Below are positions 34,073 through 59,042 of a DNA stretch of 64,000 bases, one piece after another (the stretch's first letter is position 1; the number at the start of each line of letters is the position of its first letter). The position numbers and the translations under genes were made by a program. The notes under the pieces are model-generated. The model was not told the origin of the DNA. It saw nothing but the letters and a program-made list of their open reading frames with translations, and made no database searches. Source of the DNA: Eledone cirrhosa (Eukaryota); assembly GCA_964016885.1 (NCBI GenBank), contig CAXHJY010000664.1, positions 16,739-80,738 on the forward strand. The letters run 5' to 3'.

Positions 34073-34983
34073 TATTTATGTATATGTGTATGTATGATTG
34101 TATGTATATATATATGTGGGTATGTAAGTGTGTATGCGTGAGTGTATGCACATATGTATGTAGGTAAGTATGTACGTGTGTGTATATGTGTATGTGTGTT
34201 TGTATGTAAGTGGGAATGTAAGTGTGCGTATGTATGTATATGTATGTATATGTGTGTCTGTGTATCTATGTGAGTTTGTATGTATGTGTATGTATGTGTG
34301 TATGCATGTATGTGTGCATGTGCATGTATGTGTGCATGTGCATGTATGTTCTGGTTTCATAATTAAAAAAAAATGTTTACCAATAGAGATGAGGTTTCTA
34401 ACAGCATATGTGTGTGTATGTATGCATCAATTTATGTATGTATGTGCTCATGTATGTGTGTATGTGTACGTGAATATGACTGTATGTAGGTGTACGTATA
34501 TGACTGATTAACAGTCACACGTGCTTTTTTTTCTCTTATATACCTTTTCTTTCTTTTCTTGTTCACGTCTATCTTCCCTTTTCTTCTTCTCACTCACACT
34601 ATCTATATCTACCGATGAAGGAAGAGCATCCGAAACGTTAAGACTCTTTTCCAACTATATCAAGCGTTTAACTAATATATCATCATTGTATAGTATTGTT
34701 CTTCTGAGTTAGACGGAGAGAAGAGAGACAGACAGACAGACAGACTGATAGACAGACACACAGATGGAGGATAGCACACACACGCACGCACCTACTAATA
34801 CACAATCATATATATATGAAGAAGGTGAGTTTTATTGTAGCACAATAAAGCAATGCAAATATCGGATAAGTAGCACTCAACAGTTTATAGGACTGGAGTA
34901 TAAATAATATAAAATAAATATAAATAATAAATAAAATAAATATAAATAATATAAAATCAAAAGATGGTTAAAAGAGTTCCATA

Positions 34984-35054
34984 TATTCTATTATGCGCAT
35001 TTCAAAAACAAATATCATCATCGGATAATATTTGCGTTCTCATCAGATAAAATA
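34984..35054 (-). ncRNA. Type I hammerhead ribozyme
   Basis: UAUUUUAU-CUGAUGA-GAACGCAAAUAU...AUAUUUGUUUUU-GAAA-UGCGCA-UA^-AUAGAAUA. Confidence 0.8.
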
Positions 35055-35112
35055 TGTTGATTTAACACTTCACTGCTCGCAAGTGCTTTTTAAGCTTCAT
35101 ATCATGTCTCCC

Positions 35113-35180
35113 TATTTTATCTGATGAGAACGCAAATATCATCCGATGATATTTGTTTTTGAAATGCGCATAATAAAATA
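35113..35180 (+). ncRNA. Type I hammerhead ribozyme
   Basis: UAUUUUAU-CUGAUGA(35121)-GAACGCAAAUAUC/GAUAUUUGUUUUU-GAAA(35161)-UGCGCA-UA^(35172)-AUAAAAUA. Confidence 0.85.
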
Positions 35181-35443
35181 CATGGAACTCTTTTAACCAT
35201 CTTTTGATTTTATATTATTGGCAGTATCGGTAGAGGGTTGGACGCCATGTTTTCTAGCAAATACCAGTACATTACTGGTACTTTATTTTATCGACCCCGT
35301 AAGGATGAAAGGCATTTTGAATTAATATTTTGAATTAATATTAATAACTCCAGAAAACTTTCATTGTTGAGTGCTTCTAATCTATTGTAAAACTATATTC
35401 ATTTATTAATCAATGAACCTTGTTTAACTTTTGGTTATATATA

Positions 35444-38184: not shown

Positions 38185-39011
38185 GATGGCCATTGACTCT
38201 TAAGAGTCAATGGCCATCCAAAATCACTGGGAGAGATGACCCCTTAGCCTTTGTCAAGGCAGAATTCTAGGAGAAGGAAAACTCTGATATAACAACTGCA
38301 ACCCTGATGGTATCCAATGATGTTACCTTGTTCTTCTTTTTGGTAAATATCATCTTGGTTAAGGGAGTGGGACTGGCTTTGTGCAGTGCCTTTGCTCACT
38401 ATAAAAGCTTCACGGCACAGGCATTGCTTTATATCTGGAGATCTTTCTGCACTTGTCGTTACATGGTACCATGGGCCCAGCACTATGTGTCAATGATTGT
38501 CACAGGTGTAGTGTTTGTACCAGAGTTTTCAAGTCGCTGGCTGGACTAGAAAGTCATATTCGTTCAGCGCATCGGTAGGGGTTCTCCTAGATGGATATAA
38601 AGTATTGGCCGTACTCGAAAACGAGTTGGCAGCCACCATGTATGTATGTATGTATGTATGTATGATATAACACCTGCAACCCTGATGTATCCAATGATGT
38701 TGACTTGTTCTTTTTGGTAAATATCATCTTGGTTAAGAGAGTGGGACTGGCTTTGTGCAGTGCCTTTGCTCACTATAAAAGCTTCATGGCACAGGCATTG
38801 CTTTATATCTGGAGATCTCTCTGAACTTGTCGTCACATGGTACCATGGGTCCAGCACTATGTGTCAATAATTGTCACAAGTGTAGTGTTTGTACCAGAGT
38901 TTTCAAGTCGCTGGCTGGACTAAAAAGTCACACTCGTTCAGCGCATCGGTAGGGGTTCTCCTACATGGATATAAAGTAGTGGCCGTACTCGAAAACGAGT
39001 TGGCAGCCACC
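38185..39011 (+). mobile_element. Two tandem 5'-truncated family B copies (38185-38637, 38664-39011), each with an (ATGT)n tail
   Basis: Near-identical to the reverse complement of 16329-16770. Confidence 0.9.
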
Positions 39012-45539: not shown

Positions 45540-45810
45540 TGGCGGCGATGAATTAGTTTTGCGAGGTTTTTTTTATATGAAATCGTGTGTCGAAACAGAT
45601 ATTGTTATACTTGGGGAGGGTCATATTTGCGTAATATTGCCAGAATTAATAACAGAACACACTCACTGTTTGGTTGGTTTTCGCTTCTCGCTGTCTTTTA
45701 TTATATCTGCGATCTAACTTACTCGGTCCTCAATGTTGCCATTGACTGACCGACGGTCAAAAATAATACAGATACAATATAGACACAAACACACACATAT
45801 ATATATAGTT

Positions 45811-47669
45811 TACATAAATCTTTCGTTGCACATCTGCAACATCGTCAGTGGTGTTATATTCATTGTTCCTCCTGTTGTGTTGTATGCCTACGCCATTTTT
45901 TATTCAGTCTGTCTATATATTTACTTATTTATTTGCTTGTTTGTTTATCTTATTTTATTTTGTCTTCTTTGCGCATGCGTTTGCGTGTGTGTATAGTGTT
46001 ATGTGTGATGTGTGATGTGTGACTAGTGTGTATAGTGTTGTGTCTGCTGGGTGACTAGTGTGTGTTTATGTGCTTGTTGTTATTGTGCTTGTGTATGTAT
46101 TTATTTATCTTATTTTATTTTATTTTATTTTATTATTTATACTTCTCTTAGGTCAGTGTTGTTTGTTTGGGTGTTGTTGTTGTTCCACTCATTCTTTCTG
46201 TTTAGCTTTGGTCTTCTAATTTCTATGTTGTCTATGTTACCGTCATGTTGTTGTCTAGCATGTTCGTATAGTACTGACCCGTTTTTTCGTCCTTTTAGTT
46301 CCCCCCAGTGATGATCTATCCTTTCACCTATGCTACGAGCTGTCTCACCTATGTATGTTGTTGTCATGTTTCTGCAAGTACCCTCTGTACATCTTATGCT
46401 ATAGACTACGTTTCTAGTTTTACAGTTTATCCGGGGGTTCACCTTACATATGATACACTTCCTACAGTGGGTTTTCTTAAAAGGGTAGGTTTTGCTGATC
46501 AGGGATTTTATGGTGGTTCCTGGCTTTTCTACCACCTTTATTTTTAAGTGGGTCTTTCTCAGGGCCTTTCTACACTGGTTAGCTAATTTCCCTCCAAGGG
46601 TGGCGTCCACAAACATGACACTCTGATATCTCTGGTTGTCGTACCATGATGTGGCCTTCCCTATCTTATGTCTAGCCCTATCTAAGCTATTCCATGATTT
46701 GCTCCTGTATAGTGGGCAGATTCCTTTCATTTCATGTCCAGTTCTATGAGGGTCTTATACTTTTCCATGGCTCCTTCGTATACTCTGACTCTGTCTCTTT
46801 GGTTGTAGCCAGAGAACTGCATGCGGTTGATGAAGTGTTGGATGTGTCCTTCCATTTCTGTTGGGTCGCACATGCTGGACACATTCTTCATCACTCGTAC
46901 CAAATCTGCGATCAGAATATTAAACTTAGCACTACTGGACATTGCTGAGTTTTTGAGTATCAGGTATTTGGAGGCCATGGGTTTAGCATAGTGTGAGTGG
47001 AGAATTTGGGCTCTCTCGTCTATAGTGTTAATCCAGAGTTCTGTGTCTAATACAGGTAGTCTATTGTTAGGGTGTTTGGAAGGGAAGTCTATAGTTACAG
47101 TTATACTCTGGTGTATGGAATTAGCTATCTGCTGGATGCTTTCCATCGTGCTACGTTCTAAATCGAACTTGTTAGTGCTCTCTAGTGGGGGTGTTCTTAT
47201 AACTATATTGATATCATCTACATAACGAGAGTACATGATGAGGTCTATGGAGCTTTCATTAAGGAGATCTTTAAGTCTCCTTTCCCACCATACCATGAAA
47301 AGGTTGGCAACATCACCAGCTATGCTGACGCCGATGGCTGCTCCCTCATTTTGGGTGTAGATTTTCTCATTGAACTTAAATATGTGGCCCTTTAGGGTAG
47401 TTTTGATACTAGCCCCTATTGCATGTGCGACCATTTTTCTTACCTGATCAGTGTTTTGGGGGGTCCGTATGGCTTTGGTCCACCCAATCCACCTTCCTAT
47501 GGGAGTCTTTTTAGCCATTGAGGTTATGGTGGGGGGTCTACCTCTTATAGGTCTACTAGGGCAGAAACATCTAAGGTCATGGCTGTCTAGGTAGTCAGTG
47601 TCGTAGGTAAGTCTAAGTAGGAGGCCCAGTTCGTCTGTGTCGACGTCGCAGAACTCCACCTCACTCTCA
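45811..47669 (-). mobile_element. 5'-truncated Penelope-like element (RT + GIY-YIG endonuclease, one frameshift, 3' hammerhead)
   Basis: RT: [48 protein letters not shown] (46727-47669). After a frameshift near 46730, endonuclease CKTRNVVYSIRC...YIGETARSIGERIDHH (46137-46730). Confidence 0.92.
45813..45850 (-). ncRNA. Minimal hammerhead motif at the Penelope 3' end
   Basis: CA-CUGACGA-U-GUUGCA/UGCAAC-GAAA-GAUU-UA^-UG. Core intact, stem I only 2 bp. Confidence 0.65.
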
Positions 47670-48249
47670 ATATATATATATACATATATGTATATATATA
47701 TATATACATATATTTGTATATATATATATATACATATACATACATATGTATATATATATATATATACATACATACATACATATGTATATATATATATATA
47801 CATACATACATACATATGTATATATATATATATACATACATACATACATATGTATATATATATACATACATACATACATATGTATATATATATATATATA
47901 TACATATACATACATATGTATATATATATATATATACATACATACATATGTATATATATATATATATATACATATACATACATATGTATATATATATATA
48001 TACATACATACATATGTATATATATATATATATATACATATACATACATATGTATATATATATATACATACATACATACATATGTATATATATATATATA
48101 TACATATACATACATATGTATATATATATACATACATACATATGTATATATATATATATACATATACATACATATGTATATATATATATACATACATATG
48201 TATATATATATATATACATACACACATATGTATATATATATATACATAC

Positions 48250-52561: not shown

Positions 52562-52610
52562 GATTTCTGATGATTTCTAAAGAATGAAACAGTTCTAGTC
52601 CTGTAGAATC
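52562..52610 (+). ncRNA. Type I hammerhead ribozyme with closed stem III
   Basis: GAUUU-CUGAUGA(52567)-U-UUCU/AGAA-U-GAAA(52586)-CAG-UUCUAGUC-CUG-UA^(52605)-GAAUC; homologue at 58990. Confidence 0.8.
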
Positions 52611-54158: not shown

Positions 54159-54215
54159 AATATATATATAAATATATAATATAAGATCAAAAGATGGTTA
54201 AAGGAGTTCCATGTA

Positions 54216-54282
54216 TTTTATTATGCACATTTCAAAAACAAACATCATCATGCAATAATATTTGTGTTTTCATCAGATAAAA
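54216..54282 (-). ncRNA. Type I hammerhead ribozyme
   Basis: UUUUAU-CUGAUGA-stem II-GAAA-UGUGCA-UA^-AUAAAA on the minus strand. Confidence 0.75.
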
Positions 54283-54342
54283 CAGGAGAACATGATATGA
54301 AGGCTAAAAAACACTTGTGGATAGTGCAGTTTTAAATCAACA

Positions 54343-54409
54343 TTTTATCTGATGAAAACACAAATATTATTGCATGATGATGTTTGTTTTTGAAATGCGC
54401 ATAATAAAA
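54343..54409 (+). ncRNA. Type I hammerhead ribozyme
   Basis: UUUUAU-CUGAUGA(54349)-AAACACAAAUAU...AUGUUUGUUUUU-GAAA(54392)-UGCGCA-UA^(54403)-AUAAAA. Confidence 0.85.
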
Positions 54410-54677
54410 TACATGGAACTCCTTTAACCATCTTTTGATCTTATATTATGTATACTCCAGTCCTACAAACTGTAGAGTGCTTCTTATCCGATATCTGCAT
54501 TGCTTTATTGTACTACAATAAAACTCACCTCCTACATTATATAAATATATATATATATATAAATATATATATATATAAATATATATAATGGAAAAATTTG
54601 AACAGGGACAAAACAGAGAGGCAGTACAATAAATGTTTCTTAATTTCACGCTCAGGAGAGTGGCGGGTAGGTGGGGG

Positions 54678-54709
54678 ACGACGTTTCGGGCATAAGCCCT
54701 TCCTCAGGT
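54678..54709 (-). ncRNA. Minimal Penelope-type hammerhead motif
   Basis: AC-CUGAGGA-A-GGGC/UUAU/GCCC-GAAA-CG-UC^-GU. Core intact, stem I only 2 bp. Confidence 0.65.
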
Positions 54710-54775
54710 GAGAAGTGTGTGGGAACAGAGTTCAAAAGGTGTGTAGGGGAGTGGTGGAGAGACATATAGCGATAA

Positions 54776-54806
<31 letters not shown>

Positions 54807-57504: not shown

Positions 57505-58080
57505 TAGCAATCTCGCCATAAAGCAGCTACTTCGGCATTCGCTTATCATTCATCCTTACAAGCGCAGCTGATGTTCCAAAATCAAGGACTCGACACTATC
57601 ACAGCCCCTTCTGTCCAGAACCTCGACGTCACTGACAAACATTTGCCAAGTTATGCCGAGGATCCGACGTAAGCAGTACTGGTGGAACCTCTCAAGTCGC
57701 TTCATCTGTCTACGGTAGACCACCCACGTCTCACAGGCATAAAGAAGTGCCGCGAGCACACACGCATGATACACTTTGACCTTTGTCCTTACCGAAATTC
57801 CATGTTGTAACCAGAGACGCTTGTTCAGTTTTCCAAAAGCATCACTGGCTTTCTGTATCCTGTTTGATATTTCCCCATCAAGATCGCAGGATATACTCAG
57901 AGTGCTTCCAAGATATACAAAACTGCCAACGACCCTTAGCATTTCACCATAAACCAAGATGTTGGGCTCACAACATGGCTTCCCAGGGACTCGTTGGTAC
58001 ATGGCTACTGTCTTTTTCAAGCTTATGGTAAGTCCAAATGCAGTACACGCATTAGAAAATGCATCCATGAGATGCTGCAT

Positions 58081-58082
<2 letters not shown>
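57505..58082 (-). mobile_element. RTE-clade LINE ORF C-terminal fragment
   Basis: [65 protein letters not shown], then VRMNDKRMPK*LLYGE after a small deletion. Confidence 0.92.
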
Positions 58083-58158
<76 letters not shown>

Positions 58159-58317
58159 TATTTATATATATATATATTTATATATATATATATATGCATA
58201 TACAAACATATATACAAATATATATACATATACAAACATATATACAAATATATATACATATACAAACATACATATATATATACATATACAAACATACATA
58301 TATATATACATATACAA

Positions 58318-58366
<49 letters not shown>

Positions 58367-58536
58367 CATATATATATATATATATATATATACATACATA
58401 TATCCAAACATATATATATACATACATATATATATGTAAAATGTAAACAGAAATAACAACACAATCGGTACAGTATATGGAAGGGATATATTAGGTTAAC
58501 GCTTGAAATAGCAGGAAGAGGGTCTTAACGTTTCGG

Positions 58537-58989: not shown

Positions 58990-59039
58990 GAGCTTCTACA
59001 GGACTAGTACTGTTTCATTCAGATGAAATCTTCAGAAAG

Positions 59040-59042
<3 letters not shown>
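58990..59042 (-). ncRNA. Type I hammerhead ribozyme with closed stem III
   Basis: GAGCUUU-CUGAAGA-U-UUCA/UGAA-U-GAAA-CAG-UACUAGUC-CUG-UA^-GAAGCUC; covaries with the 52562 copy. Confidence 0.85.

Follow-up and report, generated by a model that had tools for sequence, protein, structure and literature searches.

Insertions of Penelope-like elements (PLEs) have been described as an inverted, 5'-truncated copy beside a direct pLTR, often with a tail at one end only; the pLTRs carry hammerheads and the insertions are biased towards microsatellites (PMC8557442; PMC3846280; PMC8969392). The formation of the tandem and inverted structures and the role of the hammerhead are stated as open questions (PMC8557442, PMC11167929). 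A purified PLE protein was found to nick and extend both strands of AT-rich DNA in vitro, with two reverse transcription (RT) start sites whose spacing corresponds to the tail, and ribozyme cleavage was dispensable (PMC11167929). Opposite-strand hammerhead pairs, 100-700 bp apart, are known from Schistosoma, and small motifs with a palindromic helix III are thought to be active as dimers and to cleave weakly in vitro (PMC4209133). Octopus vulgaris has recently active PLE families (31 families; PMC13282606); the main text of that study is silent on hammerheads, ribozymes and palindromes.

Three related hairpins of comparable layout, each with two near-identical arms, were found in a 64-kb window, which is the whole stretch of DNA analysed here. 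The window consists of AT-rich eukaryotic DNA, 39% of which was masked as simple repeat or low-complexity sequence. The hairpins, designated c54, c35 and c24, share several features with the EN+ PLEs that form an inverted pLTR and a tail (Penelope/Poseidon, Neptune, Nematis, Hydra; PMC8557442, PMC3846280), namely the inverted copy placed head to head with a direct copy (in all three hairpins), the one-end tail, a hammerhead within the repeat, targets made of AT-rich or microsatellite sequence and a palindromic junction. They differ from the EN+ PLEs in having no open reading frame (ORF) in a whole unit of arms, loop and tail of ~370-400 bp, in a tail of 84-90 nt instead of the usual 30-40 nt, in a junction fixed between copies that are 8-10% apart, in a loop of 40-60 nt and in a long helix II. 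The inverted pLTR layout is already described and the hairpins are not a new kind of system.

Metazoan PLE hammerheads have the same type I motif, with a palindromic helix III suited to dimer folding, and likewise can form close pairs on opposite strands (PMC4209133), but the hairpins belong to a different sequence family, and a comparison of arms within and between copies was not found in the accessible text of that paper. Non-LTR retrozymes, which are non-autonomous PLE derivatives, are likewise short and non-coding, carry a type I hammerhead and are presumed to be mobilised by PLEs; they are described as head-to-tail tandems or solo monomers (bioRxiv 10.64898/2026.07.22.740005), whereas the two ribozymes of each hairpin face in opposite directions, and the window yielded neither a tandem unit nor a solo copy of the hairpin family. 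The Anolis Poseidon PAc, studied in vitro, also has two 3' ends that define a tail, a hammerhead upstream, a stem-loop near by and an AT-rich target (PMC11167929). The ORF of PAc begins inside the hammerhead and its tail is coding (PMC11167929), whereas no ORF was present in or beside the three hairpins, all frames of which close quickly. Reconstituted inverted insertions of PAc were not found in the accessible text of the same work. Literature searches with mostly open-access coverage returned nothing on this hairpin family, on clustering of arms by locus in PLE inverted repeats, on dating by pLTR pairs or on formation of PLE inversions from two primers. Repbase or Dfam may already list the family.

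Layout, tail and ribozyme motif of the hairpins

The c54 palindrome occupies 54172-54453 with arms of ~111 bp, and the element runs on past 54449 to about 54537. Its tail-less arm, an inverted pLTR-like copy (54172-54282, minus strand), merges at the outer end with (TA)n, and its boundary is placed to within ~4 nt. A 60-nt loop (54283-54342) follows, then the tail-side arm, a sense pLTR-like copy (54343-54453, plus strand), and finally a one-sided tail of 84 nt (54454-54537, plus strand) with an opening stem-loop, a second hairpin close to the end and terminal (TA)n. Hammerhead motifs of type I lie at 54214-54284 on the minus strand (predicted cleavage after 54222) and at 54342-54410 on the plus strand (predicted cleavage after 54403).

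The related copy c35 lies on the minus strand at 34940-35219. It is made up of a tail-side arm (34940-35054, minus strand; hammerhead motif 35055-34983), a loop (35055-35112) and a tail-less arm (35113-35219, plus strand; hammerhead motif 35113-35180), the outer end of which abuts a SINE fragment and not (TA)n. Beyond the tail-side arm, at 34816-34939 on the minus strand, comes a T/A-rich expansion of 42 nt at the arm/tail boundary, followed by the tail and last by a short TA run. The third and distant copy, c24, was picked up by BLAST at ~23846-24198 on the plus strand. Its tail-less arm (23846-23957, minus strand; hammerhead motif 23952-23887) has an outer end blurred by TA repeats, and its tail-side arm (23998-24108, plus strand; hammerhead motif 24003-24068) leads into a tail of ~90 nt (24109-24198, plus strand), a homologue of the tails of c54 and c35 that again terminates in (TA)n. 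The loop of ~40 nt (23958-23997) is a tandem duplication of ~19 nt and is not clearly homologous, in either orientation, to the loops of the other two copies. The duplication resembles nearby arm sequence and could be junction fill-in, not element sequence. No fourth copy, solo tail or solo loop was found by profile searches of the masked 64-kb window, and generic repeat finders and the ORF list gave nothing usable for this window, microsatellites dominating their output.

The tail was present on one side only in all three copies, with a length of 84-90 nt and terminal TA repeats, and differed at 7 of 83 positions between c54 and c35. It opens with a stem-loop in every copy, and the tail-less arm ends at most ~5 nt from the homologous stem-loop position, again in all three. 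Five of the six element ends meet TA repeats, a weak test in a window with 39% low-complexity sequence, while the sixth, the tail-less end of c35, meets the SINE piece. A target-site duplication would be hidden by the TA flanks.

A motif scan detected the type I hammerhead motif in all six arms. Read towards the outer end of the arm, it begins with one helix I strand and the CTGATGA core; a long helix II and GAAA follow, then a palindromic helix III, and the TA cleavage site comes just ahead of the partner strand of helix I. The tail-side motif of c54 has a helix I of 7 bp, a long helix II and a palindromic helix III. Eight hits were obtained in the window (six arms and two solo elements), compared to a mean of 0.04 and a maximum of 1 in 50 shuffles; a second scan with other cut-offs gave five of the six arms and neither of the solo elements. 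Across the three tail-side strands, 38% diverged, 53 of 54 cells were paired and four pairs had changed on both sides, among them the two inner pairs of the palindrome in helix III; 8 of 500 shuffles scored as high, the comparison resting on three sequences with a structure drawn by us on those same sequences. Minimum-energy folds of single arms were no better than shuffles (z of 0.05, -1.63 and 0.11). Helix III was predicted by co-folding to pair between two molecules in c54 and c35, not in c24. The arms hold a predicted type I hammerhead, and its conserved structure points to an RNA stage. The hairpins could easily be misfiled as MITEs or microRNA precursors; their Rfam matches were confined to microRNA hairpin models below threshold. 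Rfam gave 22 matches and no hammerhead for 54160-54800, and for the whole window only microRNA hairpin models, all below threshold, among the 150 of 823 matches listed.

The two solo elements form a second hammerhead family, with copies at 52562-52610 (plus strand) and 58990-59042 (minus strand) that lie in TA repeats and are 84% alike. Both start at the 5' edge of helix I and neither is palindromic. The 52.56-kb copy is tail-less and ends at an AT stretch; the 59.04-kb copy has ~65 nt extra, part of which recurs at 27601-27652. The similarity of this 59-kb family to the palindrome family was not significant (its scores were equalled or exceeded in 426 and 487 of 1000 shuffles), and the two were treated as separate. 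Degenerate hammerhead-like pieces of other families were seen by eye at ~34600-34680 (plus strand), 54640-54720 (minus strand) and 58485-58533 (minus strand). All were missed by the motif scans, and two lie within 200-300 bp of the c35 and c54 tails.

Long inverted repeats, a short spacer, TA flanks and no ORF are also what would be expected of a DNA-based element (MITE or foldback with long TIRs, or Helitron-type) or a DIRS derivative with ordinary concerted evolution of its TIRs. Such an origin is highly improbable, since the repeats are not terminal, the conserved tail of 84-90 nt lies beyond one arm in all three copies, and the compensatory changes in the ribozyme motif point to an RNA stage. 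Particular candidates were rejected as well: a MITE or TIR DNA transposon because the inverted repeats are not at both termini in any copy, a Helitron because the 3' end of the hairpin is without the CTRR signature of Helitron 3' ends, and DIRS because the loop is without an ICR-like complement to either terminus (best local scores of 4-8, like same-strand controls).

The hairpins are very probably PLE-type ribozyme elements. They work like the inverted pLTR and tail of a PLE. As the hairpins lack an attached ORF, formal membership of the PLEs is unproven, and they can be no more than derivatives that are non-autonomous or heavily truncated. A separate PLE was identified at 45545-47670 on the minus strand, 5'-truncated, frameshifted and with TA repeats on both sides. 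Protein homologues, tblastn and motif comparison showed that it contains the YVDD motif of an RT, a CxxC linker and motifs of GIY-YIG type. For the 46.3-47.7 kb fragment the best hit was a reverse-transcriptase protein of Octopus vulgaris (70% over 308 aa, 57% over 134 aa), which suggests an octopus-like genome. Two homologues of the element gave weak Pfam support (RVT_1, E=0.004; GIY-YIG, E=0.008), and Pfam on 60 of 150 stop-free stretches of the window gave one sub-threshold hit, with none for the endonuclease stretch. No DNA match was found between this PLE, its 3' region included, and the hairpins, and it is therefore regarded as a neighbour and not as their parent. A degenerate hammerhead was seen by eye in its 3' region.

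Arms match within a copy and differ between copies

The two arms of c54 differ at 1 of 105 sites (110-column arm core), those of c35 at 4 of 102 sites plus one 3-nt gap (three events on our reading) and those of c24 at 2 of 99 sites plus one outer indel. Between copies, the arms of c54 and c35 differ at 8-11 sites (7.8-10.5%), and c24 is 37-42% diverged from both. The initial annotation had reported diagnostic words shared by both arms of one copy, and alignment located all eight in both arms of the copy named. Fourteen columns vary among the c54 and c35 arms; six of these group the arms by locus, none by side and none crosswise, and eight are private or in a gap. Comparison of c24 with each of the other copies gave 40 and 39 locus-grouping columns and no side-grouping column in either case. 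Six differences at the same sites in both arms have a probability of 1.2e-5 under independent evolution of the arms.

The AU test supported the locus tree (p=0.995) and rejected both the full side tree (p=7.7e-7) and a tree with a side swap in c54 and c35 only (p=0.005); the latter was not rejected by the SH test (p=0.09). In the unconstrained tree the c24 pair had a support of 100 and the c35 pair of 89, and the c54 pair was not a resolved clade (zero-length branches, support 43). The locus-matched pattern of the arms is real. The clustering by locus that the initial annotation had foreseen was thus borne out in three copies from one window, with both side trees rejected by AU; such clustering is predicted by every mechanism, and the tree cannot separate them.

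An assembly or polishing artefact was considered, given the many microsatellites in the region and the known difficulty of assembling PLE repeats from short reads (PMC8557442). This explanation is barely credible: the two arms still differ in every copy (at 1, 4 and 2 sites), the loops are unique, the breakpoints are homologous at three separate loci, and inverted SINE pairs of similar size have not collapsed. The latter, two inverted SINE-like pairs used as controls (19530-19934 and 9903-10145), have spacers of 67-78 nt and keep 24 of 163 and 12 of 87 mismatches, or 14-15%. The SINE-like family has at least 11 dispersed copies in the window, and the dispersed pairs have a median mismatch of 8.9% (55 pairs). 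The inverted pairs argue against blanket host conversion and against assembly collapse, although not decisively; conversion is inefficient between pairs that have already diverged, which makes the control imperfect.

Homogenisation by the host after insertion, through gene conversion driven by a hairpin or cruciform or through template switching in replication, is a rival explanation. High stability is predicted for the hairpins (-172 to -179 kcal/mol as RNA), which lie beside TA tracts, and one arm change in c35 perfects, on our reading, a small local hairpin in a template-switch-like manner. Palindromes with no ribozyme are present as well. At 26128-26247 a near-perfect inverted duplication of ~44 bp of unique sequence surrounds a TA tract, with no ribozyme motif and 2 of 58 mismatches, TA core included, which means that other routes to matched arms exist in the window; at 18949-18980 a perfect 32-nt palindrome adjoins a TA run. 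Against host homogenisation stand the mismatches kept by the inverted SINE pairs, and it leaves the homologous arm ends across loci unexplained. It is judged quite unlikely, and the gene conversion offered in the initial annotation is retained as an option of that rank, with two neighbouring inverted SINE pairs that were not homogenised.

The initial annotation had further proposed that the divergence of the arms could date insertions. This is valid in principle, provided that the arms start identical, but coarse, with 105 bp and very wide intervals. At the rate implied by PMC13282606 (a distance of 0.09 for 25 My), assumed to apply here, the illustrative ages are 1.3 My for c54 (95% interval 0-7.4), 4.0 My for c35 (0.8-11.6) and 2.8 My for c24 (0.3-10.1), all three intervals overlapping. 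The same assumed rate places the split of c54 and c35 at ~8-13 My. An arm clock would be useful for families, not for single copies.

Possible origins of the matched arms

We consider that the arms were made identical during insertion by reverse transcription, with a probability of roughly 0.7. The initial annotation had the arms regenerated in replication, and regeneration by reverse transcription is supported by the hammerheads in all six arms, the one-sided tail and the ends at TA repeats. The specific route preferred is more tentative, at somewhat less than even odds: two target-primed cDNAs of the same sense RNA, joined at helix I. A PLE protein with RT and GIY-YIG activity, supplied in trans, would nick both strands of an AT-rich target, and both nicks would prime reverse transcription, one cDNA starting from the tail end and the other from an internal start site. 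The two cDNAs would meet head to head and be joined via 6-13 nt of complementarity around helix I, with a short loop kept. Both arms would begin as copies of one strand, so that variants would be common to both arms of a copy, and later differences between them would be post-insertion mutations. The two nicks and the two priming events are suggested by PLE biochemistry (PMC11167929).

An internal start site is favoured over a chance stop because the tail-less end is homologous in all three copies, in families 38% apart. Such a start site is also supported by the second hammerhead family, in which both end types occur as separate, non-palindromic insertions (n=2). The re-copying of one arm from the other, as the initial annotation put it, is only one of the options. 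The fixed outer end is better accounted for by two cDNAs that are primed from opposite strands of the target and copied from one sense RNA. The two-cDNA route is preferred over a fold-back. Points against the two-cDNA route are that no ORF is attached, that the tail-less end of c35 lies at a SINE piece instead of TA repeats, and that the junction and loop orientation shared by c54 and c35 are explained at least as well by a fold-back or by inheritance of the whole unit.

In c54 and c35 the inner junction coincides with the helix I strand; in c24 it lies 5 nt past that strand. c54 and c35 have the same junction, and their loops are homologous and oriented alike with respect to the tail. Divergence between them is faster in the loop than in arm and tail (13 of 61 mismatches versus 15 of 188, Fisher p=0.009). 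The position of the junction and its sharing, with the loop orientation, by c54 and c35 would both be accounted for if one cDNA reached an RNA 5' end complementary to helix I, its 3' end formed a hairpin and copied itself, and the endonuclease resolved the product at the tail-less position. Self-priming of this kind was earlier proposed for the palindromic inverted-pLTR junctions of PLEs (PMC3846280), and a LINE-like copy in the window has, at 38188-38221, a palindrome at its 5' junction with a fold-back-like look and with a short self-complementary segment of the element at its centre. A fold-back nevertheless demands that the stop or cut be fixed at one position in families that are 38% apart. 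The tail-less type of end occurs also in a solo, non-palindromic hammerhead insertion, and an upstream hammerhead that could create the 5' end was not seen in the window. It is regarded as rather unlikely, though close behind the two-cDNA route.

Alternatively, the whole hairpin could be copied as a unit from few masters whose arms are equalised only occasionally, in which case the three copies would be three subfamilies with inherited identity. Three copies from three lineages cannot tell homogenisation per insertion from homogenisation per subfamily, and the junction and loop kept between c54 and c35 would fit. Equalisation would have to be frequent, however, with at least six changes present in both arms between c54 and c35 and no side-shared variant. 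A transcript of both arms is moreover predicted to be one long duplex hiding the ribozyme, yet the ribozyme structure is conserved, and inheritance of the whole unit is thought very unlikely.

If the preferred two-cDNA route is extended, the hairpins would represent a self-propagating class of non-autonomous ribozyme hairpins in an octopus-like genome, with a fixed unit of ~370 bp, a junction set by helix I and arms that double target-primed reverse transcription renews from a single strand each time the unit inserts. This extension is doubtful. If true, the hammerhead would gain a structural role in joining two cDNAs, the origin of the PLE inverted repeats would be explained, and an LTR-like clock would be available for each insertion. 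As the family is short, abundant (three copies in 64 kb) and has fixed ends, genome data alone could separate two primers, fold-back and host conversion, the distinguishing features being loop orientation, mixed-arm copies and side-shared variants.

A read-through transcript would form a duplex of ~110 bp and is hence a predicted substrate for editing or small-RNA production. Inspection of the arm differences by eye for an RNA-editing signature was given up, as the sites were too few to use. At 57559-58161 on the minus strand a stop-free stretch of 201 codons, with no Pfam hit, resembles by eye the C-terminal part of a LINE reverse transcriptase. The LINE-like element with the junction palindrome at 38188 has relatives at 2750-3033, 15952-16770 and 38670-39006, and its 3' end finishes in (ATGT)n.
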